A DNA stretch of 64,000 nt from an uncultured Bacteroidales bacterium (GTDB lineage: Bacteria; Bacteroidota; Bacteroidia; Bacteroidales; CAYRRV01). Below the pieces are notes generated by a model, which worked only from the letters and a program-made list of their open reading frames with translations, did no database searches and was not told where the DNA came from. Location: positions 212,538 to 276,537 of the forward strand of contig CAYRRV010000001.1 in NCBI GenBank assembly GCA_964426725.1. Direction: 5' to 3'. Numbering within the stretch: the first letter of the stretch is position 1; each line of letters opens with the position of its first letter. This document shows positions 1 to 49,830 of the stretch, one piece after another. A program made the translations under genes and the position numbers.

Positions 1-1161
1 ATTTACATCAATCTGGTCTGAAGTAACACCCGGTACGGCAATATCTACGGGGTTATCCACGCCAAGATAAAAAACATTCATCTTGGTTGCAGAAATAGTA
101 AGTGATGGTTCTGATACAGTGTAAGAAGCATGAAACGGTTTTTTTATATCAGCACCTCCATCAGGCGATTTCAGCACGATTAGGCCACCCCAGTTTCTTG
201 GACCCACGGCTGTTGGACTTATATTATAAATACCTTTTCCGCTTTGAATATCAAGGGAATCATAATTTCCGGTCATATGATAGGTATACATGCCAGTTTC
301 TTCATTATAGGTTGAATCATAAGAACCAACATATATTTTGGGTGCCTGGGTTGTATCATAAGCAGCAATAAATACTTTTGCTGAATATGGATTTCCTTTC
401 AATACATAATTTGTATTGGGTATAACAACTGCTTCTAATTGGTTAAATTTAAATGCTCCAGCATCAATGCGCGTGTAAAGATAACGAAGTGCTTCCGTTT
501 CGGCGTTTCGAATATCACTCTGCAGAGATGACATGATTGTAACCACGGCAATAAGCGGCAGATGTTCGAAATGCTCGGATTCCCAAGATGCCGTGTGTCC
601 TTCAACCGGGGGTGGGTTATCGGTATTCAGGCTGGAAGCAATGGATGAACGCACACTTTCTGCATCAGGACTTATCACTTCTTCGAAAAGAAATTCCCTG
701 AAATCCTCAATTGCGGCCCTTAATCCTTTCGCGGCCGCATCATTGTTATCTCCAACCATAATTTGAGCAGGAACATCCGTGTTGTCTTTACCTTGAATTT
801 TCATACCATGCACATCTTTCCCATCAATTGCTTCAGTATCTTCTCCCTCGGATGCTTCAATAATTTGTAATTTTAAATCCTGGATTAGATTAACCAGTTC
901 ATCTGCCTTGGTTTTCACCTCGTAGGCTTTATCTCTCCATTTCTTAGCCTTCTCAGGGTTTTCTGCCACGGCCCGATCAAAATCTTTATAGAGAACCTGA
1001 TTTTTTTCCACGAAGTTTTTTGTGGTTTTCGTGAGACCTTCATCTACCTTGACAAATGCATCAAGCACATCCTTGGATACATTCAGCGCTAACAATGCAG
1101 TAAGCACCAAATACATCATCCCGATCATTTTTTGTCTAGGTGTCTCTTTTCCGTGTCCCAT
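1..1161 (-). CDS. gldM: Gliding motility / T9SS protein GldM (PorM), N-terminal 387 codons; C-terminus lies beyond the window edge
   Basis: Absent from the ORF track because it runs off the edge. My minus-strand translation from the ATG at 1159-1161 reads MGHGKETPRQKMIGMMYLVLTALLALNVSKDVLDAF... and stays open to position 1. It carries the PRQKM..MYLVLTA.LALNVS N-terminal anchor signature of GldM/PorM and sits directly downstream of gldL. Confidence 0.85.
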   Translation of the reverse strand, partial: MGHGKETPRQKMIGMMYLVLTALLALNVSKDVLDAFVKVDEGLTKTTKNFVEKNQVLYKDFDRAVAENPEKAKKWRDKAYEVKTKADELVNLIQDLKLQIIEASEGEDTEAIDGKDVHGMKIQGKDNTDVPAQIMVGDNNDAAAKGLRAAIEDFREFLFEEVISPDAESVRSSIASSLNTDNPPPVEGHTASWESEHFEHLPLIAVVTIMSSLQSDIRNAETEALRYLYTRIDAGAFKFNQLEAVVIPNTNYVLKGNPYSAKVFIAAYDTTQAPKIYVGSYDSTYNEETGMYTYHMTGNYDSLDIQSGKGIYNISPTAVGPRNWGGLIVLKSPDGGADIKKPFHASYTVSEPSLTISATKMNVFYLGVDNPVDIAVPGVTSDQIDVN

Positions 1162-1213
1162 ATGTTAATCAATAGAATAAACTTAACTTTAAAAATTAAT
1201 ACAAAATTGGGTT

Positions 1214-2179
1214 TTATTTTTTTGACACATTCATTGCCGAAAGCATATTACCATAAACCGTGTTCAAAGCGGCTAAATTATCGCTTAATCTTGATATTTC
1301 TTCCTTGTATTTTTGGGTTTCTTCAACAGAATTCTTCAGGTTGTCCATCATTTTATCGAATCCACTGTACAAGCCCTGGGTCCCTTTCAAATGATCATTA
1401 TTTTCTTTTAATTGTAATTCGTAAACAGCATTAAGTGCAGCCAGGTTTTTGTTGAGTGATTCGAGTTGCTCGCCATAATTTTTTCCACCTGAAGATATAT
1501 TATTATAATAGTTACCAATTGATTCAGTGAGTTTCTGATAAGATTCCGTGAGGGTACTACCAGATTTTAATACCTGCTCAGAAATTTCTTCACCGGTACG
1601 GTTAACCAAATCGGCTGTTTTCCTGTAAGAATCATCAAGGGTTGACATTGACTGGCTCAGGTGTTGCGTGTTCTCAGTATATGTGTTTGTAATCGAACCG
1701 AGAGCTTCCGCGGCCTTTTGAAAGTTCATGACATAATTATTCGTGGCAAGAGAAGCGTCCGTAATCTCACTAATTTTAGAGGCAGTTTCGTTCATTTTAT
1801 GTAAACCGTCGCCCAACCGGTTAAAATCATCGGCAGTTATTGCTGATGTATCAACTATCTGGTCGAATCTCTCGAGAACGGCACTTGTTTTACCACTGGT
1901 AATATTTTCCCTGTATGATTCCATATCATCGGGGTCAGTCATTCCGGCTAACTCAGGATATACAAGAGTCCAGTCGAGTTCCTCGTGCAGCGGTTCAAAT
2001 GCTGAAAAGAAAAAGATAACGGCTTCCGTGGTGAGCCCTATGGTTAACATCATTCCTGCCCCGGGCCAGTGCTGAATTTTAAATAATGCACCAACAATCA
2101 CAACAGAAGCGCCAAGTCCATAAAGCTTGGCCATAAAATTTTTCCATCCTGAACTCTGGACTATTTCGGCAACATTCAT
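1214..2179 (-). CDS. gldL: Gliding motility / T9SS protein GldL (PorL)
   Basis: Two N-terminal TM helices (LGASVVIVGALFKIQHW, MMLTIGLTTEAVIFFFSAFEP). The long coiled-coil C-terminal part contains a repeated NLAALNxVY motif. ATG start. Gene order is gldK-gldL-gldM. Confidence 0.85.
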   Translation of the reverse strand: MNVAEIVQSSGWKNFMAKLYGLGASVVIVGALFKIQHWPGAGMMLTIGLTTEAVIFFFSAFEPLHEELDWTLVYPELAGMTDPDDMESYRENITSGKTSAVLERFDQIVDTSAITADDFNRLGDGLHKMNETASKISEITDASLATNNYVMNFQKAAEALGSITNTYTENTQHLSQSMSTLDDSYRKTADLVNRTGEEISEQVLKSGSTLTESYQKLTESIGNYYNNISSGGKNYGEQLESLNKNLAALNAVYELQLKENNDHLKGTQGLYSGFDKMMDNLKNSVEETQKYKEEISRLSDNLAALNTVYGNMLSAMNVSKK

Positions 2180-2206
2180 GGTAAGTTCTTTTTTAAAATA
2201 ATTTTA

Positions 2207-3532
2207 CTATCTACCCAGGTATGAGCGTACACACCTGAATCCAATATAAGATTTAGTACTGTCTTGATAATCATATGTTCTGGTACCGCATTGCAGGTAA
2301 TAGGCAATATCTTTCCAGGATCCGCCTCGAACAACTTTTCTCTTTAATCCTGGAGGATCTTCCGGTTTTGCATTATACTGATAGTTTGGGTTCAGATCAT
2401 GTGAAAAAACATAAGCGGACTCATCGTACGCGTTCGCGGTCCATTCGGCTACATTTCCAGACATATCAAATAAGCCATATTCATTAGGATCGTAAGAGCC
2501 AACACGAATTGAATAAACACCACCATCATCGGCATAGTTCCCGCGTAATGGTTTAAAGTTGGCCAGGAAACAACCCTCGTTATTTCTGGTATATCTTCCA
2601 CCCCATGGATACATGGAAAGATCCAAACCACCACGGGCCGCATATTCCCATTCAGATTCAAGAGGTAACCGGTATTCATGTACAAAAGGTTTCCCTTCTT
2701 TGGCAAGTGCATTATTGAGATATTGTGTTCTCCAGATGGCAAATGCATTAGCCTGTTTCCAGGAAACTCCTACAACAGGGTAGTCATCATAAGAAGGATG
2801 CCAAAAATACAAGGTGGTCATGGGTTCATTATAGGAATAGGAGAAGTCTCTTATCCAACATAATGTATCTGGGTAAACAGGTAATGCTTCCCGGAATACA
2901 AACGCGGAACGGTTCGCTATTTCCACGGTTTCTCCCTGATTATTAGTTACGGTTCCCTCGTATTGCTTGGTTTGATAATCATATCTGTTTTCTGGTTTGG
3001 CAGCTTGTTGCATATCAATCCAATAATACTCGTAAATGAGTTGCCGGGTATCAATTTCCTTTCTGCCCCAGAATCTTTCATTTTGAGGATAGTACATTTC
3101 CTGCAGGATCTCGTTGATTTCTTCATCACGGGTATCGATTCTTGTTTCCCAGTTGATATTGGGAGGATCAATAGGGTTCCCGAATTCATCTTCCGAGATA
3201 ATAAAATCTTCAATTCTCTCTCCAAGCATTCTTCTCATAATGGAATCTCTTACCCAATGAACGAATTGGCGATATTCATTATTTGTAATTTCTGTTTCGT
3301 CCATCCAGAATGGTTCAACTGAAACAGTTCTTGTCATGGTGTTTTGTGCCCAGGATACATCCTGATCACTTGGTCCCATGTTGAAACTACCTTGTGGAAC
3401 AAAAACCATCCCAAAAGGATCTGGCTCGAAAAATTGCTTTCTTTTTTCAACACCGGTAAGCTCACCACCGCTGTAGCTACCGCAACTACTGATGATTAAA
3501 GGAATCGTAAGTAAGCAAATCAGTCTTTTCAT
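2207..3532 (-). CDS. gldK: Gliding motility / T9SS lipoprotein GldK (PorK), FGE-sulfatase (SUMF1-like) fold
   Basis: Lipoprotein signal (LTIPLIISSCGS). SUMF1/FGE-type motifs are present (GNVAEW, RGGSW, GFRCV). It lies between a porP-like gene and gldL, as in known T9SS operons. Confidence 0.9.
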   Translation of the reverse strand: MKRLICLLTIPLIISSCGSYSGGELTGVEKRKQFFEPDPFGMVFVPQGSFNMGPSDQDVSWAQNTMTRTVSVEPFWMDETEITNNEYRQFVHWVRDSIMRRMLGERIEDFIISEDEFGNPIDPPNINWETRIDTRDEEINEILQEMYYPQNERFWGRKEIDTRQLIYEYYWIDMQQAAKPENRYDYQTKQYEGTVTNNQGETVEIANRSAFVFREALPVYPDTLCWIRDFSYSYNEPMTTLYFWHPSYDDYPVVGVSWKQANAFAIWRTQYLNNALAKEGKPFVHEYRLPLESEWEYAARGGLDLSMYPWGGRYTRNNEGCFLANFKPLRGNYADDGGVYSIRVGSYDPNEYGLFDMSGNVAEWTANAYDESAYVFSHDLNPNYQYNAKPEDPPGLKRKVVRGGSWKDIAYYLQCGTRTYDYQDSTKSYIGFRCVRSYLGR

Positions 3533-3611
3533 AACTCTAAAGGTATTATTTTTGCTAATTTATTTTCTAGTTTCTTGTTTTATTAATTTTTTATAAAAAT
3601 ATATATTTTTT

Positions 3612-4577
3612 TTACAAAAATCGTATGCTCTTGTATTTTTGTGGAACCTTTTCTTTTTTAATTGTAAAACAGTACGATAACATTAACTCATGAGAACCCG
3701 TGCTATAATTTATCAATTTTGAAGTTGCAAAATCATAGGAGTATCCTATTCTCAGCCCGTTAAACAATTCTATTCCAAGCATCCCTGTTACCATTGAAGC
3801 GACCCTGTAAGAAACGCCACCCCAAAACCTTTTATTGTACATGAGATTCGTATTTAAGTTAAGGCTGTTAATTTTCCCGTCGGATTGAACGAATAGCGAG
3901 GGTTGAATCTCAAATAATGGATTAGCAAGTTGCATCCTGTATCCTCCCATTACAAAAAAATGAGGTTTCATCTGATAGACACCATTTTGCCTGTATTGAA
4001 TCTCGGGCTGACCAAAATTAAGCACTGACCCTCCCACGTAAAGGTTGTCTGTTTTGTAATATAATCCCATTCCCAAATCAAGTCCTATGCCCGTGTCATC
4101 ATTTTGTGGCACAAGTTCATCTTGTCCCCCGGAAAGTTCGGTATCTGGATAAACCCATTCCATCCCGCTGATCCCGGCATTAATAAATCCTCCCCTGATA
4201 CCAATGCCGAGTCGACCATCTCCTACATTCATCTGGTATGCATAAGTAAGATTCATGGAGAGATTATTGTTATATCCTAATTGATCTGTTAAAATTGTTA
4301 AACCTGCACCACTTGAAACCCCGAATAACCGGAAAGGAGTACTGGCAGAAAAAACAGCCGACTCAGGATTTCCTGCAAATCCAATCATATCTTGCTTAGC
4401 AAGTGCATTCAGGCAAACCATATCACTGCTACCGGCGAACCCGGGGTTAATAGCCATATGATCAAACATAATTTGACTAAAAACAGGAGCTTGCTGTCCT
4501 GAGACAACAGAAAATAAACCAGTTACGATAAAACTGGTCAATAGAGTGAACCTTATTTTTTGTCTGATGCTCTGCAA
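3612..4577 (-). CDS. porP: PorP/SprF family T9SS outer-membrane protein
   Basis: A signal peptide is followed by QQAPVFSQIMFDHMAINPGFAGS, which matches the QQDPQFSQYMFN..NPAYAG family signature. The remainder is beta-barrel-like and ends in IRFL. The ORF-track start is a TTG, with no in-frame ATG before the signal peptide. It is the first gene of the porP-K-L-M operon. Confidence 0.8.
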   Translation of the reverse strand: MQSIRQKIRFTLLTSFIVTGLFSVVSGQQAPVFSQIMFDHMAINPGFAGSSDMVCLNALAKQDMIGFAGNPESAVFSASTPFRLFGVSSGAGLTILTDQLGYNNNLSMNLTYAYQMNVGDGRLGIGIRGGFINAGISGMEWVYPDTELSGGQDELVPQNDDTGIGLDLGMGLYYKTDNLYVGGSVLNFGQPEIQYRQNGVYQMKPHFFVMGGYRMQLANPLFEIQPSLFVQSDGKINSLNLNTNLMYNKRFWGGVSYRVASMVTGMLGIELFNGLRIGYSYDFATSKLINYSTGSHELMLSYCFTIKKEKVPQKYKSIRFL

Positions 4578-4888: not shown

Positions 4889-4980
4889 GTGTCTTGTCAA
4901 TGAAAAAATGAAGGTTGATCTGTGCCATATGTCTTGAATGAATTGACATTCCTTCTGCAATATCCAATGTGACGGCTCAC
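4889..4980 (+). repeat. Copy 1 of a ~92-bp dispersed intergenic repeat
   Basis: GTGTCTTGTCAATGAAAAAATGAAGG...CTGTGCCATATGTCTTGAATGAATTGACATTCCTTCTGCAATATCCAATGTGACGGCTCAC. By hand alignment it matches copy 3 (42134-42225) at 76 of 92 positions without gaps. Confidence 0.85.
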
Positions 4981-5083: not shown

Positions 5084-6256
5084 TTAATTAATCCGCTGGA
5101 AATTTTTCCACCATCTATCGGGGATTTCCTGATTACACGCGTCCTGATAGTCTTTATAGGAGCATGCAATTATTTTGGTCGTGTTTTTTTCAGCAGTTTC
5201 ATTTCCGATCACGGGAATTTCCATCCACCACCGATCACTTTGCAGGCTCTTGTAAAAGATTAAATCATATTCAACTGTATTTAGCTTAATGATGAATTTC
5301 TTGAAACCTTGTCTGGTTAATTCCGGGGATTCATTTTTTCTTGAAGAAAATCCTTGCATGAAATACCAAATGATCTGCGCGGCCAGATGGGATGTAATAT
5401 TATTGATGTCGTACCTGGGATTTACCTCAAAAATCCCGAATGCGGAAATTTTTTCACTTAATCCTGCATAGCGTGCTAATTGACAGATTTCTTCACCATG
5501 AAGGCCATTAGAAGAACTGTTGTAATGGCCCGGGGCATCAGAGTGTCTGATAGCTCCTATATCTATAGAGACAAAACTGGAATCCCTGAGAATGGGCTCT
5601 GCTTCAGTAATATTTTGGCGGAGTTGTCCAATTCGCATATTGTCATACATATGCTTGTCAAGTTCATCAAGATGGGATGAATCCACGAAATATTGTTGAT
5701 AGGCCAGTGAGGTTAGGTTGAAAAGGGAATCATTTTTATTACTGATTAGTTTCCGCAGGAAGTTCAACGAGTGTAAATCGTTTATGGCAGTGTGCATATC
5801 TACACGCGAATCGATTGACACGAGTGAAACATCTGATTTAAGATAAGTAAGTGCCTTAAAAACGGGATAGGATAATTCCTGACTTCCTCCCATTATAATA
5901 GGTATAGTTCCTTTTTGTATTAATTCCTGCAAAACATCTTTTAATCCAAAATATGTATCTTTTGGATGGGTTCCTTGTTTAAGATTTCCAAGGTCAATTA
6001 CTCGTATTTGATTATTGATTTTATTGAGCTGGTAAAGTTTATTTCTTATTGTATCAGGAGCATTCGCGGTACCTATATTATATGTGCCTCTTTCTTCGGG
6101 GACACCCAGGATGCCAATATTGTATCCTGAAGTATCGGGAATGGGTTGATCGGGTGTGTGAACACGGGTAAATTTACAAAAAGCACCGGGCTGTTCAGGA
6201 GTTAATTCTGTTGATTTATCCAGGCTTACCGGATCAAAATATTCATTCAGATCCAT
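5084..6256 (-). CDS. Arginase/formimidoylglutamase (ureohydrolase) family protein with degenerate metal-ligand motifs and a C-terminal extension
   Basis: Ureohydrolase-like layout, but the canonical motifs read GGSQE (for GGDHS), DSRVD (for DAHxD) and SIDIGAIRHSDAP (for SxDxDxxDP). A ~80-aa extra C-terminal region has two RWW motifs. The ATG start lies 2 nt after the topA stop. Confidence 0.65.
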   Translation of the reverse strand: MDLNEYFDPVSLDKSTELTPEQPGAFCKFTRVHTPDQPIPDTSGYNIGILGVPEERGTYNIGTANAPDTIRNKLYQLNKINNQIRVIDLGNLKQGTHPKDTYFGLKDVLQELIQKGTIPIIMGGSQELSYPVFKALTYLKSDVSLVSIDSRVDMHTAINDLHSLNFLRKLISNKNDSLFNLTSLAYQQYFVDSSHLDELDKHMYDNMRIGQLRQNITEAEPILRDSSFVSIDIGAIRHSDAPGHYNSSSNGLHGEEICQLARYAGLSEKISAFGIFEVNPRYDINNITSHLAAQIIWYFMQGFSSRKNESPELTRQGFKKFIIKLNTVEYDLIFYKSLQSDRWWMEIPVIGNETAEKNTTKIIACSYKDYQDACNQEIPDRWWKNFQRIN

Positions 6257-8574: not shown

Positions 8575-8815
8575 AGGTTAATTCATTAAAATATAAATTT
8601 ATAAATCAATGATCTAATGGAACATATCATCAAAATTTTACCGCCTTCGGCGAGTTCTCCACCGGCTGTCGGATCGATCCGCATAATTATCGTGAAACTT
8701 TTAAGTAAAATTTTAATGAACGTTTCATCAGAAATAAAAACACAAAAGTAAAACAAATAAGAAGCTTTAATCAAAAAATTAAAATAAATAATTACTATTT
8801 TTACCATCAAACTCC

Positions 8816-11167: not shown

Positions 11168-12861
11168 TCGATACCTGGTACAGAAGATATAAGAACCTTG
11201 AGGTATTGTGTTTCAGGAGATTGAAACAGGATATCTGTTTTTCCTTTTTCTACAATTTTCCCTTCTTTCATCACGAGGATCCTGTCCGCCATATGCCGGA
11301 TAACAGATAAATCATGTGAAATAAAAAGATAGGTTAGTTTCATTTCATCTTTCAGATCATTTAAGAGATTTAAAACTTGTGCCTGAAGTGATACATCCAG
11401 CGCGGAGACCGATTCATCACAGATAACGAATTCCGGGTTAATAATTAATGCTCTTGCTATCACGATTCTTTGACGTTGTCCACCCGAGAACTGATGAGGG
11501 TACTTAAACATATCTTTTTCGCGTAAGGAAACTTTATTCAGGATATCAATTATCTTTTCACGGATTTCATCTTTTGTTAAACCTGGAAAGTGAACATTTA
11601 GCGGCTCGGAAAGTGTTTGTATTATGTTTAACCGGGGATTTAAAGAAGAATAAGGGTCCTGAAAAATGAGTTGAATTTTTCTTCTTAAATTTCTAAGGTC
11701 TCTTGCATTGAGTTTATAAAGTGAGATGCCATTATAAATAACTTCTCCCTGATTAGCCCTGATTAGTTGAAGAATCAAACGACCTAGCGTGGTTTTCCCG
11801 CATCCGGATTCACCAACCAGTCCTACTGTTTCACCTTTTTTTACTGAGAAGGAGACATTATCAACCGCAGGTGTATAGGAAACAGGATTTCCTAAAAGAT
11901 TTTTTTGTTTGACAAAGAGTTTTTTCACATTTTTAATTTGCAGAAGGATTTCTCCATTGGTCTCAGGTGGCGGGTTGATTCTTTTAGATTTATCTTTATT
12001 CCCGGTATTCGGGGTCTTTTTTACAAAGTCATCTATAACCGGGAGGCGTTTTTTTCTACCTGAAATCGAAGGGCGGCATGCTATCAGGCCTTTGGTATAA
12101 GGATCACGCGGGTGAGTTAATATCTCATTTGTTTTTCCTTTCTCAACAATTTTTCCCTCTTTCATCACGATGATGTCGTGGGCAATTTCTTTGATTACAC
12201 CCAAATCATGTGAAATAAACAGGAGACTCATTTTGAATTTTTCCTGTAGTTCGCGGAGTAATGTAATAATAGATTTTTGAACAGTTACATCCAGGGCAGT
12301 TGTTGGCTCGTCAGCAATAAGCAGTTGGGGATCATTAGCCAGTGCAGTCGCGATCATTACTCTCTGTCTTTGTCCTCCCGAGAGTTGATGCGGGTAAGCA
12401 TTAAAGATCCTGTCGGGTTCGGGGAGTTTAACTTCTTCAAACAAGGTAAGCACTCTTTCTTTTATTTCTTTTTTATCGCGGTTACCATGTATAGCCATGG
12501 GTTCACCGGCCTGAATTCCACATTTCATCGATGGATTGAGAGATGTCATGGGTTCCTGAAATATCATGCCAGTATATTTTCCTCTTATTTTTTTCAGATG
12601 GTATTCCGGTAAGTTATACAGGTTAATGGTATCATCATTAATTTTGAGGAGAGCCATGCCATTTTTTATTTCAACTCCGGGCGGTAATAAACCATTAACA
12701 GATAGGGCAGTAAGAGACTTCCCGGATCCGGATTCTCCCACGATTCCTAATGTTTTTCCCGTGTCTATTGCAAAAGAGGCATTCTCTACCAGTGAAATAC
12801 TGGTTTCACCCTGGGTTGTAATAGTTAAATTTTGAACCGATAATAAAATCTGTTCATTCAT
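11164..12861 (-). CDS. Fused double ABC transporter ATP-binding protein (Dpp/Opp-type, GsiA/YejF-like)
   Basis: Two Walker A motifs (GESGSGKS, GESGCGKT). Two LSGGQRQR signatures. Two Walker B motifs (LLIADEPT, FVICDES). No permease or binding-protein gene is adjacent. Confidence 0.85.
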   Translation of the reverse strand: MNEQILLSVQNLTITTQGETSISLVENASFAIDTGKTLGIVGESGSGKSLTALSVNGLLPPGVEIKNGMALLKINDDTINLYNLPEYHLKKIRGKYTGMIFQEPMTSLNPSMKCGIQAGEPMAIHGNRDKKEIKERVLTLFEEVKLPEPDRIFNAYPHQLSGGQRQRVMIATALANDPQLLIADEPTTALDVTVQKSIITLLRELQEKFKMSLLFISHDLGVIKEIAHDIIVMKEGKIVEKGKTNEILTHPRDPYTKGLIACRPSISGRKKRLPVIDDFVKKTPNTGNKDKSKRINPPPETNGEILLQIKNVKKLFVKQKNLLGNPVSYTPAVDNVSFSVKKGETVGLVGESGCGKTTLGRLILQLIRANQGEVIYNGISLYKLNARDLRNLRRKIQLIFQDPYSSLNPRLNIIQTLSEPLNVHFPGLTKDEIREKIIDILNKVSLREKDMFKYPHQFSGGQRQRIVIARALIINPEFVICDESVSALDVSLQAQVLNLLNDLKDEMKLTYLFISHDLSVIRHMADRILVMKEGKIVEKGKTDILFQSPETQYLKVLISSVPGID

Positions 12862-31708: not shown

Positions 31709-32073
31709 CTGTCAATCCGTCTGTTTATCATCTTTCCCGATGGAAATACCGGGAAAAAAGCAAAAAGGTTGCATTTAACCAAATGATTTTATGAACAATG
31801 TATGGAAGGTTTGAATTTTTCATGTTGATAAATGCCGGAATTTTTAAGAGAGCTGTATCTTTATAAAAAAAAAATGAATGAAACATGAGTAAATAATAGG
31901 CAAGGCCTTTTCATGAACGCGGTGAATAGCAATTTAAATATAAACTCGTAGCACAGGACATACCCGAGATGATAATCAAGGTCCAAGTACTGTCATGAAC
32001 ATGAATAAATCGATTAACCCCGGCAGCTACCGAGGGGAATGCCATATTTCGGGTTTGGACACAATTTTTTTAA

Positions 32074-37840: not shown

Positions 37841-39013
37841 ATGAGTGGTAGTATAATGCGGGGATTTAAAGACCTGGACGAGAATAAATTAAAGATAGAT
37901 AGAGTTACTTTAGATAGCTTGACTAAATTAGGCGCTTACGATTGGCTCGAAGATATTCCGCTTGTTTACACGCATAAAGAAAATCTCGTTGAGGTTCGCT
38001 TTAAAAACACTAGAAAAGGATATTATATTAACACGAATTTCCTGCGGCTGGAGCGGGGAGATATCGTTGCTGTTGAAGCCTCGCCCGGGCATGATATTGG
38101 TATTGTATCATTAACAGGTCCCTTGGTGGCGGAGCAGGTGAAAAAAGTCGGACTCAAGTTGGATTCCCCGGATTTTAAGAAGGTATACAGGAAAGCCAAG
38201 CCCAATGATCTAGATAAATGGAAGGAATCAATTAACCTGGAGCATAAAACCATGTTGAAGGCCAGGAAAATTGCCGAAGATTTGAAACTCGATATGAAAA
38301 TCGGAGATGTTGAGTACCAGGGTGACCGGACCAAGGCTATTTTTTATTACATCGCTGACGAACGGGTCGATTTCAGGGAGCTAATTAAAGTACTGGCTGA
38401 TGAATTCCGTATAAGAATAGAAATGAGACAGATAGGAGCAAGGCAGGAAGCAGGTCGTATTGGCGGAATAGGACCATGTGGACGGGAACTTTGTTGTGCT
38501 ACCTGGATAACCAATTTTGTTTCAGTAACAACCAATTCTGCCCGTTATCAGGAAGTATCCCTGAATCCGCAGAAACTGGCCGGTCAATGCAGTAAACTTA
38601 AATGCTGTTTGAATTATGAAGTAGAGTGTTATCTTGATGCACAAAAAGATTTTCCCGATATTTCTATACCCCTGGAAACAGGAGAAGGAACAGCTTACCA
38701 TCAAAAAACAGACGTTCATAAGCGACTCATGTGGTATTCTTCTTCACCTGATTCAACAGCATCACTTGTTGAAATACCCGTGGACAGGGTGAAAGAAATA
38801 ATCGAGATGAACAAGAAAGGTTCCAAGCCGGCTAGACTCATGGAAGAAGTTAAAGAGAATAAAGTAATTGGTACGGGTATTGATTACGAGAATGAGGTAG
38901 GTAAGGAAAGCCTCACCCGCTTTGAAAAGAAAAAAAGAAAAGGTGGAAAAAGTAAAAAAGGCCAGGGAAGACGCGATAAGAATAAAAAAAATACAGGTAG
39001 AAATGAAAAATAG
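37841..39013 (+). CDS. PSP1 domain protein (RicT/YaaT-like)
   Basis: PSP1 C-terminal domain pattern (IFYYIADERVDFRELIKVLADEFRIRIEMRQIG, CGRELCC, KLKCCL). Ends in a strongly basic tail KKKRKGGKSKKGQGRRDKNKK. Confidence 0.8.
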   Translation: MSGSIMRGFKDLDENKLKIDRVTLDSLTKLGAYDWLEDIPLVYTHKENLVEVRFKNTRKGYYINTNFLRLERGDIVAVEASPGHDIGIVSLTGPLVAEQVKKVGLKLDSPDFKKVYRKAKPNDLDKWKESINLEHKTMLKARKIAEDLKLDMKIGDVEYQGDRTKAIFYYIADERVDFRELIKVLADEFRIRIEMRQIGARQEAGRIGGIGPCGRELCCATWITNFVSVTTNSARYQEVSLNPQKLAGQCSKLKCCLNYEVECYLDAQKDFPDISIPLETGEGTAYHQKTDVHKRLMWYSSSPDSTASLVEIPVDRVKEIIEMNKKGSKPARLMEEVKENKVIGTGIDYENEVGKESLTRFEKKKRKGGKSKKGQGRRDKNKKNTGRNEK

Positions 39014-39470
39014 AAGATTTTTATACATACTCCTGCCAATTATATTTCTTTCATGCGGTAAAGGGATCCTCTACGAGGAGTTCAGGACTATCCCCGGGGC
39101 AAAATGGGATAAGGGGGAGGAGAAACTTTTTGAAGCTCATGTTGAAGATACTTCCGGCATCTATAATATTTATGTCAGCGTGAGAAATTCTGGGGAATAC
39201 AGGTACAGGAACTTATTTTTGTTCGTAAATACAGCCTCACCTGCCGGACAGGTTGTAAGAGATACCGTTGAGATTCTACTTGCCAACGAAAAGGGTAAAT
39301 GGATGGGTAAAGGTTTTGGCGGCATTTGGGAAACCGAAAAAATTTACAAACGGCAGGTACAATTTCCTGTTAAGGGAGTATATGTATTTTCTGTTCAACA
39401 CGGGATGAGAACTGATACACTACATCATATACTGGATGCCGGCATTAGAATCGTGAAGGTAAAAATATAA
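39003..39470 (+). CDS. gldH: Gliding motility lipoprotein GldH
   Basis: I use the internal ATG at 39003 (MKNRRFLYILLPIIFLSCGKG, lipobox). GldH-like body (YRYRNLFLFV...LANEKGKWMGKGFGG). The ORF-track start at 38922 lies inside the PSP1 gene tail. The two genes overlap by 11 nt. Confidence 0.7.
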   Translation: MKNRRFLYILLPIIFLSCGKGILYEEFRTIPGAKWDKGEEKLFEAHVEDTSGIYNIYVSVRNSGEYRYRNLFLFVNTASPAGQVVRDTVEILLANEKGKWMGKGFGGIWETEKIYKRQVQFPVKGVYVFSVQHGMRTDTLHHILDAGIRIVKVKI

Positions 39471-39485
39471 AAAGTCAATACTTAC

Positions 39486-40187
39486 GTGTCGAAAAATAAA
39501 CTGGCCAGGTTTGCTGATATGGAAACCCTCGCGAATGTTATACAACCTCATTTCAGCGAGGTTTACCAAAAAGATTACCGGTTAAAAGGAAAGTGGAATT
39601 CAGATTTTTTTAACTGTGATAATCCTCTCGTTCTCGAGTTAGGGTGTGGAAAGGGTGAATACACCGTTGGTCTGGCCTCCAAATACCCGGGTAAAAATTT
39701 TATCGGGATTGATATCAAGGGGGCAAGAATGTGGAGAGGAGCCCGGCAGGCTATCGAAAACAACTTGGATAACGCTGGTTTCCTGAGAACCAGGATTGAA
39801 TTGGCAGACTCATTTTTTGCCCCGGGGGAAATTGCTGAAATTTGGATTACATTTCCTGATCCTCAACTGAAAAAGCGGCGCAATAAAAAAAGACTAACCC
39901 ATCCCAGGTTTCTGAATCTTTACAGGAAATTTTTAAAAAATAATGGCATTATCCATCTTAAAACAGATAACAGGATTCTTTATAATTTCACCCTCGGGCT
40001 CGTAAAATATAATGGTATTCTACCGGAAATTGCTACCAATGATTTATATAATAGTTATTATGCCAATGAAACACATGGGATTAAAACATTTTACGAGCAA
40101 ATGTTCCTGGATGAAAATTTACCCATTCATTACCTGAAGTTTCAACTTCCCGCGGAAAAGGAAATAATTAACCTGCCAGATGAGTGA
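39486..40187 (+). CDS. trmB: tRNA (guanine46-N7)-methyltransferase
   Basis: KNKLARFADM, LELGCGKGEY and FPDPQLKKR motifs. GTG start. Confidence 0.9.
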   Translation: MSKNKLARFADMETLANVIQPHFSEVYQKDYRLKGKWNSDFFNCDNPLVLELGCGKGEYTVGLASKYPGKNFIGIDIKGARMWRGARQAIENNLDNAGFLRTRIELADSFFAPGEIAEIWITFPDPQLKKRRNKKRLTHPRFLNLYRKFLKNNGIIHLKTDNRILYNFTLGLVKYNGILPEIATNDLYNSYYANETHGIKTFYEQMFLDENLPIHYLKFQLPAEKEIINLPDE

Positions 40188-40524
40188 AGTAAACTTTTTT
40201 GAAAAAGTATACAACGTGGTACTTCTTATACCTCGTGGTCGAGTGACTACATACGGGGCGATTGCCCGGTATATCGGAAGCCCACGGTCGTCGAGAATGG
40301 TAGGATGGGCCCTGAATAGCAACCGGTTTTCAGGGGACTATATTCCCGCGCACAGGGTCGTGAACAGGCAGGGCCTGCTTACCGGGAAAAGATACTTTGG
40401 CACACCTGGCGTTATGAAAGAACTCCTTCAAAATGAGGGTGTCAGGGTGCATGATGATCAGGTACTTGATTTTCAGGAATGTTTTTGGGATCCTGCTAAA
40501 GAGTTAGTGACGCGTCATAGTTGA
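40180..40524 (+). CDS. MGMT-family DNA-binding protein lacking the acceptor cysteine (alkyltransferase-like, ATL)
   Basis: IPRGRVTTYGAIARYIG...IPAHRVVNRQG: the PCHR active-site motif reads PAHR. 114 aa, containing only the DNA-binding domain. The start overlaps the trmB stop, and the last 18 nt belong to repeat copy 2. Confidence 0.8.
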   Translation: MSEVNFFEKVYNVVLLIPRGRVTTYGAIARYIGSPRSSRMVGWALNSNRFSGDYIPAHRVVNRQGLLTGKRYFGTPGVMKELLQNEGVRVHDDQVLDFQECFWDPAKELVTRHS

Positions 40525-40597
40525 TATGCAGATGGGATATCCCTTTATTCCGGGCATGTGGCACAGTTCAATTGTCATTTTTTCAATGACATGATAC
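40507..40597 (-). repeat. Copy 2 of the ~92-bp dispersed repeat (reverse orientation)
   Basis: The reverse complement reads GTATCATGTCATTGAAAAAATGACAATTGAACTGTGCCACATGCCCGGAATAAAGGGATATCCCATCTGCATATCAACTATGACGCGTCAC. By hand it matches copy 3 at ~70 of 92 positions with one gap. Confidence 0.8.
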
Positions 40598-40657
40598 AGT
40601 ATAAAATGTCATGTAAAATCCTTGTCCGATTTATATTTTTCATGTAATTTTAATCGT

Positions 40658-40665
40658 TATATTTG
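40658..40665 (+). promoter_or_regulatory. Candidate -7 promoter box (TAnnTTTG) for mrp/apbC-nifU
   Basis: TATATTTG, 38 nt upstream of the ATG at 40703 and downstream of repeat copy 2. Confidence 0.35.
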
Positions 40666-40702
40666 CACTTATTTAATCTTAGTATAAATAAAAATATTTA
40701 AA

Positions 40703-41806
40703 ATGGGTTTAAATGAAGACCAGGTAATAAAAGTATTTAGGGAAGTGAAACATCCCGAGACCGGTAAATCTATTTTAGAAATGGAAATGGTCAGGGAACT
40801 AGTTGTGGAAACAGGAAAAGTGAGTTTTGATCTCGTTACAACTAAAAAGAAAGATCCTTTTATTAATTCCATTGCAAAGGTTATTGAACGTGCTATTCAG
40901 AGTGAAATTGATGAAAACATTGAAGTAAGCATTACTGTTAAAAGTGCCTTCGTTCCCCGGGGATCAGAACAGGAAAAGATTATCCTTCCTGGGGTTAAAC
41001 ATGTTATCGCGGTTGCGTCGGGTAAAGGTGGTGTTGGAAAATCCACCATGGCTGTTAATCTCTCGGTTGCAATGGCAAAAACGGGAGCAAAGGTTGGCTT
41101 GATTGACGCGGATGTTTATGGGCCTTCAATTCCCAAAATGTTTGGGGTCGAACATTTGAGGCCTCATGTTAAAAAAGTGGACAATAAAGACCTGATAGTT
41201 CCAATAGAAAAATATGGGGTAAAAATGTTGTCGGTTGGTTTTTTCGTGAACTCTTCTGAGGCATTGGTATGGAGAGGACCTATGGCTACCAGTGCATTAC
41301 GTCAACTCATTCATGATGCTGAATGGGGAGAACTCGATTACCTATTCCTTGATTTACCTCCCGGCACCGGAGATGTTCATCTTACTATTGTTCAGGAGGT
41401 ACCTGTAACGGGAGCAATTATTGTAAGTACCCCCCAGGAAGTGGCTTTAGCTGACGCGATAAAAGGTATTAGCATGTTTGAGAGTTCTAAAATTAATGTT
41501 CCGGTTATCGGTTTAATTGAAAACATGGCATGGTTTACTCCAAAGGAATTACCGGGAAACAAGTATTTCATTTTTGGCAAAGAGGGTTGTAAGCACCTGG
41601 CTGAAAAGATGAATCTTCCTCTCTTGGGTCAGATTCCAATTGTACAGGATGTTGTTGAATCCGGAGATTCAGGGAATCCTGTTGTTTTGGATGATAATCC
41701 AATAACCCTTTCAGCCTTTGATTCTCTGGTACGAAATTTTAATGCAGCCCTGGATAAACGTCTTAAGGAAAAAGCGCCTACCAAAAGAGTAATTATAAAC
41801 AAGTAA
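40703..41806 (+). CDS. apbC: Mrp/NBP35 family Fe-S cluster carrier ATPase (ApbC)
   Basis: N-terminal DUF59-like domain. Deviant Walker A VASGKGGVGKST. 367 aa. Confidence 0.92.
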   Translation: MGLNEDQVIKVFREVKHPETGKSILEMEMVRELVVETGKVSFDLVTTKKKDPFINSIAKVIERAIQSEIDENIEVSITVKSAFVPRGSEQEKIILPGVKHVIAVASGKGGVGKSTMAVNLSVAMAKTGAKVGLIDADVYGPSIPKMFGVEHLRPHVKKVDNKDLIVPIEKYGVKMLSVGFFVNSSEALVWRGPMATSALRQLIHDAEWGELDYLFLDLPPGTGDVHLTIVQEVPVTGAIIVSTPQEVALADAIKGISMFESSKINVPVIGLIENMAWFTPKELPGNKYFIFGKEGCKHLAEKMNLPLLGQIPIVQDVVESGDSGNPVVLDDNPITLSAFDSLVRNFNAALDKRLKEKAPTKRVIINK

Positions 41807-41817
41807 ATAATATAATC

Positions 41818-42066
41818 ATGAATAAAACAATGGATAAAGAAAATCTTAAAGAAAGAATTAAAACAGCCCTGGAACTTATCAGACCTTACCTGAAAGCCGA
41901 CGGGGGCGATGTATCTCTTCAGGAAGTAACTGATGATATGACTGTTAAAGTGAAACTGGAAGGAGCCTGCGTGGGTTGTCCCTTTAGCATGCAGACTTTA
42001 AAAGCCGGTGTTGAGCAGGCAATTCGAAGAGAAGTGCCTGAAATTAAGGAAGTAGTTTCAGTTTAA
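41818..42066 (+). CDS. NifU C-terminal-domain-like protein
   Basis: IRPYLKADGGDV...LEGACVGCPFS (CxxC motif). 82 aa. Confidence 0.85.
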   Translation: MNKTMDKENLKERIKTALELIRPYLKADGGDVSLQEVTDDMTVKVKLEGACVGCPFSMQTLKAGVEQAIRREVPEIKEVVSV

Positions 42067-42133
42067 AACGGATTTCCATACTTTTTACTATACCTTGCTT
42101 ACAAAATTTTCATGTTATCAGGGTAACTTAAGA

Positions 42134-42225
42134 GTGTCATGTCAATGAAAAAATACCGGTTTATCTGTGGCACATGTCTTAAATAAAGGGACATTTCTTC
42201 TTCAATATCAAATGTGACGCGTCAC
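42134..42225 (+). repeat. Copy 3 (reference copy) of the ~92-bp dispersed repeat
   Basis: GTGTCATGTCAATGAAAAAATACCGGTTTATCTGTGGCACATGTCTTAAATAAAGGGACATTTCTTCTTCAATATCAAATGTGACGCGTCAC. Lies between nifU-like and the sprE/porW-like gene. Confidence 0.85.
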
Positions 42226-42352
42226 TGGTTTTTACGGCCTGAAAATCTTATTTATCACCTAATGGGAGTGCAGGACATTAAAATTTGTGTCCGTATTATA
42301 AAATAAGATGGGCAAAAAACAGTTTATTGTATAGTCAAAAAATATTAGCTCG

Positions 42353-45016
42353 TTGCGAAGTAGGGGTTTAACATATTTTATTATCATTGTTCTGTTTTTT
42401 TCAGGGTGCAGTACCGAGAAAAACACGTGGATTACCCGTACTTATCATAATGTTACCTCGAAGTATAATATCCTTTTCAATGCCAGTGAAAGTTTCAACA
42501 AGGGAGTAAAAAAAGTTAATGAAGCTTACGAGAATGATTTTACAGGGATTTTACCTGTTTTTACGTATGGGAACAAGAACATTGCTTCAACTGCCATTCC
42601 CGATATGGAAAGAACTCTGAAAAAATGCTCCAAGGTAATTACTTTTCATTCAATAAAGGTTAAGCCTGAAATCAAAGAAGGTCCGATGACACCGGAAGAA
42701 AAGGAGTTTTACGAAAAAAATGAATATAATATTTTTGTTGACGATGCTTACATGTTTACCGGCAAAGCACACTTTTACAAGCATGATTTTCGACTGGCTT
42801 CCGAAACTTTTAAGTTTGTCATAAGGGAATTTGAAAACCAGGATGCCATGTACACGGGATTAATCTGGCTTGCCCGAACGAATTGTGAATTAGAGAGATA
42901 CGACGATGCTGAAAAAGCACTCAATATCCTGGCCAGTCAACCATCCATTCCCGAAAAATTAAAAGAGGATTACTTTACTTCACTAGCCGATTTTTATATT
43001 AAACAGGAAATGTACCGTGAAGCAATTCCTCACCTTGAAACTGCACTGCAACATACACGAAAAAAAGATAATAAAATAAGATATAGTTTTATTCTCGCTC
43101 AATTATACGCGAAAATCGGCGAGGGATTGAAAGCCTATCACATGTATGGTAACGTCATTAAATTCAATCCTCCCTACGAGTTTACCTTTAACGCGAAAAT
43201 TAACCGTGCCTCCGTCTTTGAGGCGGGTGTTGTAAATGCAAAAGAAATAAAGGTTCAACTGCTCGACATGTTAAAAGACGAGAAGAACAAGGAGTTCAAA
43301 GACCAGATATATTACGCGTTAGGGAACATTGAGATTAAAGAGAATAAAATCGATGAAGCTTTAGAATATTATAAATTATCCACCTGGAATAGTGTATCCA
43401 ATGATCGGCAAAAGGCCAAATCCTACATTTCTATCGCTGATATTTATTACGAGTTTCCTGATTATAAAATGGCTCAGTTTTATTACGATAGTGCTGTTAT
43501 GATAATCGATGAAACCCATAATAATTACCAGCTAATATCTGCCCGGGCTGAAAATCTTACAAATCTGGTTAAAAATCTGAACACGATTGAATTACAAGAT
43601 AGCGTTCAGGTACTTGCCAAAATGGGTGAAGAAGAATTGTATGCCTATATTGATAAGGTAATTGAAAATGTAAAGCGGGAAGAAATTGAGGCAAAACAAA
43701 GAGAAAACGAAAGACGGATGCAGGAGCAAATGGCACGAATGCATGATGGACAGGGTTATAACACGTATAATGATCCAACTGCTTCCGGCAAATGGTATTT
43801 TTATAGCCCTTCTTCAAAAAACCAGGGTTCTTCCGAATTCAAAAGAAAGTGGGGTGATCGCGAGCTTGAAGATAATTGGCGAAGAAAAAGCAAAAAGATT
43901 GTTAGCACGGGTGAATATGGTGAACTGGCAGAGGAGGGAGACGTGAATGAAGAACAACAGCAAAAAGTCCTTGATAATAAATCAAGAGAGTTTTACCTGC
44001 AAAATATACCACTTACAGACTCCATGATGCAGGTTTCACATGAGCAAATAAGGGAATCCATTTATAATGCGGGAATGATATACTGGAATGACCTCGGAGA
44101 ACTTGACCTTGCCGCAGAAAAATTTGAAGAACTCGGAAGAAGATATCCCGAAAATGACCATGCCCTGATGGCGTTTTATAATCTTTACAAGATATATAAT
44201 GAACAGGGTAACCTGAATAAATCAAACCTTTATAAAAACCTAATAATTAATAACTTCCCGGAAAGCCAGTATGCTAAATTGCTGACGAACCCGAATTACC
44301 TTGAAGAATTAAAAGCAGAGAAAAACAGGGTATACTCGTTTTACGAGGAAACATACAATCTTTTCCAACAAGAAAATTATCAACAGGTTATTGATAATGT
44401 AAATTACGCGTTCGAAGAATTTAAAGAAAGCGATATATTACCCAAGTATGCCTACCTGAGGGCGATATCAATCGGGAAAACCAATAATAATATTGAAATT
44501 TTTAGAGACACCCTGAATAAGTTAATAAACACGTACCCGGGTAATGAAGTGGCCGATCTGGCAAAGGCCATTATCAATAAAATGAACGTGGAGCATCCGG
44601 AGATAAAACAAAAAGAGGAAATCGTTAAGGCAAAAGAAATTTACACGGGTTTTGATGTAATACAAAATAGTCCTCATTTCTTTGTTATTTTGCTTGACAG
44701 CAAGCAAGGTAACATGAACCAATTGATATTTAATATTATCAATTTCAACCTTGATGTTTATGAAAATGCCGATCTTAGGGTGAATGGAGAAACATTTAAT
44801 AAAGATTTCCAGATTGTTACCGTGAAGCAATTCAAAAATACAAATGAAGCAATAGAGTATTACCAGAATATTACATCAACTGGCGAACTTTTTAAAGATG
44901 TAGGTTCAGATCTTCATCATCAATTTATTATTTCAGAAGAAAACATGAAGGTTCTGCGCGATGATAAAGGAATTGAAAGGTACATGCTGTTTTTCAAAGA
45001 TAACTACCTGGATTAA
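42353..45016 (+). CDS. sprE: TPR-repeat lipoprotein, probable T9SS component SprE/PorW
   Basis: Lipobox (VLFFSGCSTEKN) followed by NTWITRTYHNVTSKYNILFNA, which resembles the SprE/PorW N-terminus as I recall it. Multiple TPR-like segments. ~887 aa, similar in size to SprE. TTG start. Immediately upstream of porX. Confidence 0.55.
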   Translation: MRSRGLTYFIIIVLFFSGCSTEKNTWITRTYHNVTSKYNILFNASESFNKGVKKVNEAYENDFTGILPVFTYGNKNIASTAIPDMERTLKKCSKVITFHSIKVKPEIKEGPMTPEEKEFYEKNEYNIFVDDAYMFTGKAHFYKHDFRLASETFKFVIREFENQDAMYTGLIWLARTNCELERYDDAEKALNILASQPSIPEKLKEDYFTSLADFYIKQEMYREAIPHLETALQHTRKKDNKIRYSFILAQLYAKIGEGLKAYHMYGNVIKFNPPYEFTFNAKINRASVFEAGVVNAKEIKVQLLDMLKDEKNKEFKDQIYYALGNIEIKENKIDEALEYYKLSTWNSVSNDRQKAKSYISIADIYYEFPDYKMAQFYYDSAVMIIDETHNNYQLISARAENLTNLVKNLNTIELQDSVQVLAKMGEEELYAYIDKVIENVKREEIEAKQRENERRMQEQMARMHDGQGYNTYNDPTASGKWYFYSPSSKNQGSSEFKRKWGDRELEDNWRRKSKKIVSTGEYGELAEEGDVNEEQQQKVLDNKSREFYLQNIPLTDSMMQVSHEQIRESIYNAGMIYWNDLGELDLAAEKFEELGRRYPENDHALMAFYNLYKIYNEQGNLNKSNLYKNLIINNFPESQYAKLLTNPNYLEELKAEKNRVYSFYEETYNLFQQENYQQVIDNVNYAFEEFKESDILPKYAYLRAISIGKTNNNIEIFRDTLNKLINTYPGNEVADLAKAIINKMNVEHPEIKQKEEIVKAKEIYTGFDVIQNSPHFFVILLDSKQGNMNQLIFNIINFNLDVYENADLRVNGETFNKDFQIVTVKQFKNTNEAIEYYQNITSTGELFKDVGSDLHHQFIISEENMKVLRDDKGIERYMLFFKDNYLD

Positions 45017-45068
45017 CTTTTCTCCAGGAAGCCTGTTATACCTGTATCACTCTTAATTGGATTTGAAA

Positions 45069-46622
45069 ATGAAAAATGCTGATGTCTTATGGGTAGATGA
45101 CGAGATAGAACTGCTTAAACCGCATATCCTTTTTCTCGAGGATAAAGGATATAATCTTATCACTGCCACGAACGGGGATGATGCCATAAAAATCGTGAAT
45201 TCCCATTCGGTTGATTTAATTATACTGGATGAAATGATGCCGGGAATGACAGGCCTGGAAACACTCAACGTGATAAAGAGCCTCAAGCCTTCTGTGCCGG
45301 TAATCATGATTACAAAAAGCGAGGAAGAGGATATCATGGATCAGGCTATTGGTTCAAAAATAGCCGATTACCTTATAAAACCGGTGAAACCGAATCAAAT
45401 ACTTCTCAGCATAAAGAAAAACCTGGATACAAAAAGACTGGTTAATCAAAAAACTACCACTGCTTATCAGTCCCAGTTTTCTCAAATCGGGATAGAAATT
45501 AATTCCGCCAATTCCTTTAACGAGTGGACAGAAATATACAAGAAGCTGGTATTCTGGGAGTTGGAGCTCGACAGGACAGGTGATGCCGGTATATCCGAAG
45601 TGCTCAATCTTCAAAAAAATGAAGCCAATGCTGGTTTTTCCAAATTTATAAGGAAAAATTATAAATCGTGGTTTTCCGGGAATAATGAATCTAAACCACT
45701 TATGTCACCTAACCTTTTTAGCAAAAAGATATATCCAATCATGGATGATCACGAAAAGGTAGCGGTAATTTTAATTGATAACCTGCGATTTGATCAGTGG
45801 CACGTGATAAAACCACTGGTATCGGAGTCTTTTAATATCACGACGGAAGAACTTTATTGCAGCATTCTTCCAACAGCAACACAATATAGCAGGAATTCAA
45901 TTTTTGCAGGATTGATGCCCCTGGAAATCGGGCAGCTTTATCCTGACCTGTGGATCAATGATGAGGAAGAAGAATCAAAAAATCAATATGAAGAAGAACT
46001 ATTAAAAGGACAATTACAAAGATCCGGGAAAAACACCCGTTTTTATTACGAGAAAGTAAGTAACCTGAAAACCGGGAAAAAAATCCTGAACCGCGTTAAT
46101 GATCTAACAAATTACCCGTTGTCAGTTATCGTTTATAATTTTGTTGATATACTCTCGCATGCCCGTACCGAAATGGAACTTATAAAAGAACTGGCAAACG
46201 ATGAAGCAGCTTACCGGTCATTGACCTTGTCATGGTTCGAGCATTCCCATTTACTGGATATTATAAGGGAATTATCTGCAAGAAAATTCAAGGTAGTAAT
46301 CACCACTGACCATGGGACGGTGAGAGTTTTTAATCCCCTCAGGGTAGTGGGCGACAGGAAAACAAGTACCAATTTGCGCTATAAAACAGGTAGAAACCTT
46401 AATTATAATCCGAAGGAAGTATTTGAAATTCAAAATCCATCTGATATTCACCTGCCAACAATAAATCTCAGTTCATCTTATATATTTGCTATGCATCATG
46501 ATTTTTTGGTGTACCCTAATAATTATAATTACTACTCGAATTATTTCAGAAATACCTTTCAACACGGGGGTATTTCCATGGAAGAAATGTTAATCCCCGT
46601 GGTTGTATTATCGCCAAAATAA
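45069..46622 (+). CDS. porX: Response regulator PorX (CheY-like receiver + PglZ/alkaline-phosphatase-like domain)
   Basis: Receiver domain VLWVDDEIELL...DLIILDEMMPGMTG...KP. C-terminal PglZ features (LIDNLRFDQW, ITTDHGT). 517 aa from the ATG at 45069; the ORF-track start at 45057 is a TTG. Confidence 0.85.
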   Translation: MKNADVLWVDDEIELLKPHILFLEDKGYNLITATNGDDAIKIVNSHSVDLIILDEMMPGMTGLETLNVIKSLKPSVPVIMITKSEEEDIMDQAIGSKIADYLIKPVKPNQILLSIKKNLDTKRLVNQKTTTAYQSQFSQIGIEINSANSFNEWTEIYKKLVFWELELDRTGDAGISEVLNLQKNEANAGFSKFIRKNYKSWFSGNNESKPLMSPNLFSKKIYPIMDDHEKVAVILIDNLRFDQWHVIKPLVSESFNITTEELYCSILPTATQYSRNSIFAGLMPLEIGQLYPDLWINDEEEESKNQYEEELLKGQLQRSGKNTRFYYEKVSNLKTGKKILNRVNDLTNYPLSVIVYNFVDILSHARTEMELIKELANDEAAYRSLTLSWFEHSHLLDIIRELSARKFKVVITTDHGTVRVFNPLRVVGDRKTSTNLRYKTGRNLNYNPKEVFEIQNPSDIHLPTINLSSSYIFAMHHDFLVYPNNYNYYSNYFRNTFQHGGISMEEMLIPVVVLSPK

Positions 46623-47052: not shown

Positions 47053-47386
47053 ATGATCAATGAAACGTACATGAAAAAAATTTTCATTTGTTCACCAGCG
47101 AGGATGAATAAATTTTTAATGATAAGTTTCACGATTTGAATTATACCCAGGTTGAGCGTTTGGAGAGAATCGAACAAGTGCCTTTCGCCAGTCGACGGGT
47201 AACCCCGGTATTGAGTTTGTTGAATTTCACAAAACAAGCGCTGTGAAATGCTTACAGTATCTTCATCGATTGAGTAAATCGCTCCATTTGGGTTATACAA
47301 TTATATTCCTTTGAAATATTCATGATTATTTGAAAATAAAAGGTATTTGTATTATTTTAGTTCATTATTGATTGAAACAGACTATT

Positions 47387-49625: not shown

Positions 49626-49667
49626 TGCAGATGATAGCCGGTTCTAACTATAATTTTTTTCAACCGA

Positions 49668-49728
49668 CCTGTGCCACATGCCTGAATAAAGTGACCTTCC
49701 CACTGCAACATCAAATGTGACGCCTCAC
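49668..49728 (+). repeat. Copy 4 of the dispersed repeat (3' two-thirds conserved, 5' part diverged or truncated)
   Basis: CCTGTGCCACATGCCTGAATAAAGTGACCTTCCCACTGCAACATCAAATGTGACGCCTCAC aligns to the right-hand ~60 nt of copies 1-3. The upstream part carries a T-run where the other copies have an A-run. Confidence 0.65.
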
Positions 49729-49830
49729 TACCCGGTGCTTAAATATATAATAGCCGTATGTTAAACATCATGGGACCATATTCCCTGGTTATCATTTTTC
49801 ATTGTACTTTCGTGAAAAATATCGTGTATA

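Follow-up and report, generated by a model that had tools for sequence, protein, structure and literature searches.

A dispersed 92-bp intergenic repeat, probably of mobile origin, in an uncultured Bacteroidales lineage

Genomic context

A non-coding repeat of 92 bp lies at positions 42134-42225 of the window, which is the whole 64-kb stretch of DNA from an uncultured Bacteroidales bacterium that was analysed here. The repeat begins 68 nt past the stop codon of a nifU-like gene and ends about 130 nt ahead of an 887-aa TPR gene, which in turn precedes the gene for a PorX-like response regulator that carries a PglZ domain. The gene set of the region is that of gliding Bacteroidota with type IX secretion (T9SS), including PorP/SprF, a GldK-like protein, GldL, GldM, GldN, GldH and SprB. 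Stretches dense in T9SS and gliding genes were seen at 1-4577 (-), 38922-39470 (+) and 42353-46622 (+) of the window, as well as in L006 and L010, and gldM and gldN lie shortly beyond the left end of the window, sprB shortly beyond its right end. The window holds approximately 57 genes, all of them housekeeping genes, and none encodes a transposase, a recombinase or a Y1 transposase. Proteins from the flanks are also found in the assemblies GCA_048614935.1, GCA_048624235.1 and GCA_046538705.1 and in Logan assemblies.

Some other features of the window are separate from the 92-bp repeat. A 96-nt direct repeat (77% identity; 11233-11328 versus 12127-12222) lies within a 565-aa ABC_tran gene; it is the gene's two homologous ATPase domains and not a mobile repeat. 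Two otherwise unrelated intergenic regions share an inverted 27-nt match (85%; 8689-8715 versus 47109-47135) with a 12-nt exact core, ATCGTGAAACTT / AAGTTTCACGAT, and this match could be due to chance or to a shared operator. The long intergenic regions at 31709-32073 (365 bp) and 47053-47371 (319 bp) contain no ORF and no copy of the repeat, and neither gave an Rfam match at gathering thresholds.

Copies of the repeat

The first-pass annotation had described a family of four copies in the window. From a MAFFT alignment of these four (mean column identity 75%, flanks unrelated) we derived an nhmmer profile, which was scanned over the 64-kb window and recovered exactly the same four, with E-values of 1e-18 to 1e-28; the next match had E = 0.28 and no other fell below 0.1. 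Copy c1 is at 4889-4980 (+, full length, E = 6.5e-28), copy c2 at 40507-40597 (-, full length, E = 6.5e-26, placed by nhmmer at 40506-40597) and copy c3 at 42134-42225 (+, full length at 92 bp, E = 3.5e-27, placed by nhmmer at 42134-42226). The fourth copy, c4, at 49660-49729 (+, E = 1.2e-18), is truncated at its 5' end: it covers model positions 24-94, keeping consensus positions of about 22-92 and missing the left-end block. The earlier hand count for c1 against c3, 76 of 92 positions with no gap, was reproduced, and that for c2 against c3, given as roughly 70 of 92, came to 71 of 91 on recount. An independent repeat finder returned the same family as the sole long non-coding repeat in the window (D3, D5 and I1).

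On contigs of the same species, the sequence continues for 8.8 kb to the left of the window and for 6 kb to the right. With a profile made from seven copies, which finds c3 itself at E = 6e-26, three further and more diverged copies were detected in the left extension (E = 1e-16 to 1e-18), at L006:13620-13710 (+), L006:15983-16072 (-) and L006:20536-20625 (-), while the 6-kb right extension contained none. The total is seven copies in approximately 79 kb, or about one per 11 kb, with a strand split of 5 versus 2 and pairwise identities of 54-83%; the copy nearest to the family consensus is c3. If this density held throughout the genome there would be a few hundred copies, a figure that is an extrapolation from the ~79 kb. 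The same-species contigs are 99.8-100% identical and carry identical copies of the repeat; they thus show neither insertion polymorphism nor any sign of current mobility.

A family of this kind might be a product of chance similarity, or of purely local duplication of intergenic DNA, and the comparison does span only ~79 kb of one genome. Against this, the E-values range between 1e-14 and 1e-28, the copies have unrelated flanks, and they are scattered across 58 kb, in either orientation, among genes that are unrelated to one another. Chance similarity is effectively refuted by these results, and we assign the whole explanation a negligible likelihood.

Anatomy of the unit

The consensus is GTGTCATGTCAATGAAAAAATGACAGTTGATCTGTGCCACATGTCTTAAATAAAGGGACATTCCTTCTGCAATATCAAATGTGACGCGTCAC. 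Its right end is a perfect 12-bp palindrome, GTGACGCGTCAC, located at 42214-42225 (+) in c3. The annotated form of this end, GTGA-N4-TCAC, is present in all four window copies, and at up to three mismatches the palindrome matches the window only at these four. In the diverged copies e2 and e3 it has decayed with no compensatory change. The left-end block, the 21-mer GTGTCATGTCAATGAAAAAAT (42134-42154, + strand), has three matches at up to three mismatches where none is expected, all of them within copies. Its first 11-12 nt are a degenerate version of the right-end palindrome, and the proposal that the left end is an imperfect inverted copy of the right end was borne out at 8 of 11 positions when compared with the right-end reverse complement (13 of 25 over a longer stretch). 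As the right end is itself palindromic, terminal repeats in inverted and in direct orientation look alike here. Between the ends lies a central dyad, TGTG-S-CACA, at 42166-42174 (+) in the conserved block CTGTGSCACATG, whose exact and one-mismatch matches are confined to the four copies. Apart from its 12-bp end, the repeat is not self-complementary and has no overall dyad symmetry.

The three conserved sub-motifs (left, centre and right) never occur outside the copies within the window, which indicates that the 92 bp spread as one unit. The ends are less variable than the middle, with mean mismatches of about 0.5-1 versus 1.5-2.7 per column, a difference that is not significant with seven copies (P ~ 0.1).

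Placement among genes

Approximately 7% of the window is intergenic, yet all of the copies are intergenic except for 18 nt of c2. Copy c1 lies between an arginase-family gene, whose stop is at 5084, and the porP/sprF-gldKLM operon, which starts at 4577, both on the minus strand, and is in reverse orientation to the local transcription; it is 27 nt past a terminator-like hairpin (5026-5007) of the arginase-family gene and more than 300 nt before porP. The final five codons and the stop (VTRHS and stop) of an MGMT-like DNA_binding_1 gene at 40180-40524 come from the right end of c2 (40507-40524); the left end of c2 is some 60 nt upstream of TATATTTG, the promoter box of mrp at 40658. Copy c4 is flanked by a 187-aa gene with no known function and by an epimerase gene. 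Outside the window, e2 lies 40 nt past the gldN terminator and adjoins the stop of a convergent TPR gene, and e3 lies about 25 nt upstream of the gltX promoter box. The copies thus occupy the slack parts of intergenic regions. The mixed orientation reported for the window copies holds true: relative to the downstream gene, two are forward (42134 and 49660) and two are reverse (4889 and 40507).

Two inverted pairs of copies bracket transcription units, one enclosing mrp-nifU (40507-42225) and the other a 739-aa TPR gene (L006:13620-16072). With so few copies, this bracketing could be chance. The pairs resemble a composite transposon in layout, but mrp-nifU holds the same place in a relative that has no such elements.

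Tests for RNA, coding and signal functions

The first-pass annotation had left the repeat between a dispersed element and a small structured RNA. The first part of this reading is favoured by the additional copies, their occurrence in both orientations, their intergenic positions, the truncation of one copy and the absence of the repeat from the relative L011; the second part was not supported. An Rfam check had been suggested, and a scan of the whole window with Rfam 15 at gathering thresholds gave no matches. Sensitive Rfam scans around each copy gave only chance-level matches (E = 0.25-9) to differing eukaryotic snoRNA families. Single-sequence folds on both strands were no better than those of shuffled sequences for seven of eight sequences, and RNAalifold on the seven copies gave only -1.2 and -2.0 kcal/mol for the two strands, with covariation terms that were positive, i.e. 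penalising.

It could still be argued that the repeat encodes a multicopy small RNA, or acts in cis as an RNA element of a leader or 3' UTR, as its size of about 92 nt and its intergenic position are compatible with such a role and blocks of it are conserved among the copies. We consider this very improbable. Besides the negative Rfam result and the unsupported folds and consensus structure, there is no Bacteroidota promoter box, TAnnTTTG, in the repeat or at a fixed distance from it, no terminator follows it, its orientation to the flanking transcription is mixed, and the nearest relative is without it.

Coding and signal functions were rejected as well. Frame +3 reads MSMKKYRFICGTCLK followed by a stop in c3, and the consensus, c1, c2 and e3 have in-frame stops. 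The observation that no reading frame is conserved between copies is correct, and in the consensus and most copies every one of the six frames contains stops. As a promoter cassette the repeat fails in that none of the window copies contains a TAnnTTTG box, and sigma-70-like and terminator-like matches within it were not above those in shuffled sequences.

Comparison with relatives

Outside the species, Mrp has its best homologue on L011 (77% amino acid identity), and the next best are at approximately 60-64%. L011 keeps the gene order trmB-MGMT-mrp-nifU-TPR. Neither of its two orthologous intergenic regions contains any trace of the repeat, and both are shorter than those of the window (132 versus 178 bp and 117 versus 286 bp). 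At the end of the MGMT-like gene, the similarity to L011 stops at the right boundary of the repeat; the L011 gene instead ends in ELGF and a stop. The empty-site alignments with L011 are too diverged to reveal an exact insertion or excision scar, and the absence of the repeat there could be a loss rather than a gain in the window's lineage.

More distant relatives were also searched. No member of the family was found in ~40 kb from three of these or in two gltX-upstream regions; distant relatives recovered by a TPR protein search (48-51% identity) lack the repeat. A degenerate pattern, CTGTGSCAYATG-N30-45-TGACGNNTCAC, that matches all four window copies had one chance match in 185,579 GTDB species genomes (one per species); it falls within a cytochrome-like coding region and is not a family member by nhmmer. 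The same pattern had two chance matches in JGI metagenomes, and a looser pattern had five in IMG/VR. Distant-mode blastn against plasmids and phages returned nothing, and a literature search with the conserved blocks as strings found nothing relevant. The statement that the repeat cannot be assigned to a known family stands within the libraries searched: the repeat is confined to one poorly sampled, isolated lineage, and no described family in those libraries matches it.

A separate observation from the L011 comparison concerns mrp itself. Its promoter box TATATTTG and a leader of ~45 nt (40640-40700 versus L011:1140-1190) are conserved nearly base for base though the Mrp proteins are just 77% identical, which suggests that the 5' leader is under constraint.

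A possible protein-binding role

Three to four of the seven copies adjoin T9SS or gliding operons. Upstream positions are seen at porP-gldKLMN and at the TPR-PorX-like operon, downstream positions at gldN and at the gldH operon, and the association of copies with these operons may be a coincidence. The repeat could be a dispersed, putative protein-binding DNA cassette, co-opted for organising or regulating the operons next to it, possibly those for T9SS and gliding. The putative sites, a degenerate GTGTCATGTCAA at the left, TGTG-S-CACA at the centre and GTGACGCGTCAC at the right, might be bound by a dimeric regulator or a nucleoid protein. The three dyads do stand at fixed spacing in every full-length copy, a placement that is independent of orientation fits a function at the DNA level, and the adjoining operons mentioned above agree with this idea. 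Several results speak against it. The T9SS association was drawn post hoc in a region dense in such genes, and the upstream region of sprB is without a copy. L011 keeps the same operons and the mrp promoter without having the repeat. The dyads are never found alone, and the right palindrome decays in the diverged copies. The distance to promoters ranges from about 25 to more than 300 nt upstream, and some copies lie at the 3' ends of genes. On balance, we think that a binding cassette is rather unlikely.

In a bolder form of the same idea, the repeat would be not selfish debris but a mobile cassette, its three dyads putatively bound by a lineage-specific regulator or nucleoid protein, that was recruited beside T9SS and gliding operons. 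If true, one Bacteroidota lineage would have a secretion and motility regulon that is being rewired by a transposable regulatory module. We hold this form to be quite improbable.

Origin of the repeat

An indivisible unit that is found at unrelated intergenic sites in one lineage and is decaying has the signature of a small non-autonomous mobile element. We therefore propose, with a probability of roughly 0.6, that the 92-bp repeat is a lineage-specific dispersed family of mobile origin, most likely non-autonomous and MITE-like, that is now decaying. The mechanism of transposition is one that we infer. A transposase encoded elsewhere in the genome would once have copied the 92-bp unit into intergenic DNA, presumably by recognising its ends, the short imperfect terminal repeats GTGnCnnGTCA. 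Insertions would have survived only at sites of low harm, that is between a terminator and the next promoter or at the extreme 3' ends of genes. Copy c2 has rewritten the end of the MGMT-like gene, giving it a new C-terminus and stop, and the copies have since diverged to their present 54-83% identity. The ends of any matching IS would be expected to start with GTGTCATGTCA / TGACGCGTCAC.

The repeat agrees with the definition of a MITE as a small, non-coding, multicopy, intergenic element with no transposase of its own, as given in bioRxiv 10.1101/2024.01.18.576219. It is short and non-coding, at 92 bp with stops in all six frames, and it is present in multiple dispersed copies with unrelated flanks. 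Within the Bacteroidota, examples of MITEs come from Porphyromonas gingivalis (PMC4596501, PMC5771137) and Cardinium (PMC9769881). Like bacterial MITEs, the repeat has many copies that are mainly intergenic and in both orientations, has short candidate terminal inverted repeats and is restricted to a lineage. Unlike them, it has no detectable target-site duplication, its terminal repeat matches at just 8 of 11 positions and no transposase of a parent IS is encoded in the window; its 92 bp are at the short end of the MITE size range, and it has no sequence similarity to elements in the collections searched. A search for target-site duplications at the junctions of all seven copies, including shifted boundaries, turned up no direct repeat of 3-9 bp in any consistent form; in old copies such duplications may have eroded. 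Given the weak terminal repeat, the lack of a visible target-site duplication and the lack of a transposase gene in the window, we call the repeat MITE-like and do not class it as a strict MITE.

Movement as single-stranded DNA by a Y1 transposase would explain why a target-site duplication is absent. The repeat could accordingly be an element of the REP/BIME type, or a PATE-type element derived from IS200/IS605, moved by a Y1 enzyme (RAYT or TnpA) that recognises terminal hairpins. In PMC3733652, REPs are described as palindromes of 20-40 bp, and REP/BIME elements with RAYTs are GTAG- or CGTC-tagged. The 92-bp repeat is similar to these elements in being extragenic and multicopy, in lacking a target-site duplication and in having one palindromic end with CGTC/GACG, which recalls the CGTC-tagged REP superfamily. 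The unequal strand counts, 5 versus 2, also fit this idea. The differences are considerable. Palindromic symmetry is confined to the terminal 12 of the 92 bp; the rest is unique conserved sequence, which sets the repeat apart from REP/BIME elements, and the unit does not have the form of an imperfect 20-40-bp palindrome headed by GTAG or CGTC. The terminal "hairpin" would have just 4 bp and a 4-nt loop, and it is lost in the diverged copies. Of the conserved subterminal hairpins at both ends that characterise IS200/IS605 PATEs, none that was stable or conserved could be found on either strand. As a hairpin-ended single-stranded DNA, the consensus folded no better than shuffled sequences on either strand (z = -0.07 and -0.30). 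No Y1 transposase is present in the window. We judge movement of this kind to be clearly unlikely.

Dispersed intergenic repeats of about 100-150 bp that lie by promoters and terminators are known from other bacteria, and include the Correia elements of Neisseria, the ERIC/IRU sequences of enterobacteria and the RUP and BOX elements of pneumococcus. These repeats sometimes overlap the ends of genes, and protein-binding sites occur inside some of them. Correia and ERIC elements form long imperfect palindromes whose potential for RNA or DNA hairpins is strong, and Correia elements have 26-bp TIRs and a TA duplication. Compared with these, the 92-bp repeat is without overall dyad symmetry, fold or TA duplication.

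Significance

The type of object that we describe, a small dispersed intergenic repeat, is well known, and its practical value is modest. In metagenome-assembled genomes of this species the repeat probably causes assembly breaks, and it can serve as a strain- or lineage-specific marker. Its interest would rise only if a genome-wide census showed enrichment by secretion and motility genes, or if a new mobilising enzyme came to light. If the MITE-like reading is right, the repeat is one more small non-autonomous repeat family, in an uncultured Bacteroidota lineage with almost no sequenced relatives. Its copies would then mark sites of past insertion, and would account for intergenic regions of unusual length and for one gene end that was rewritten.
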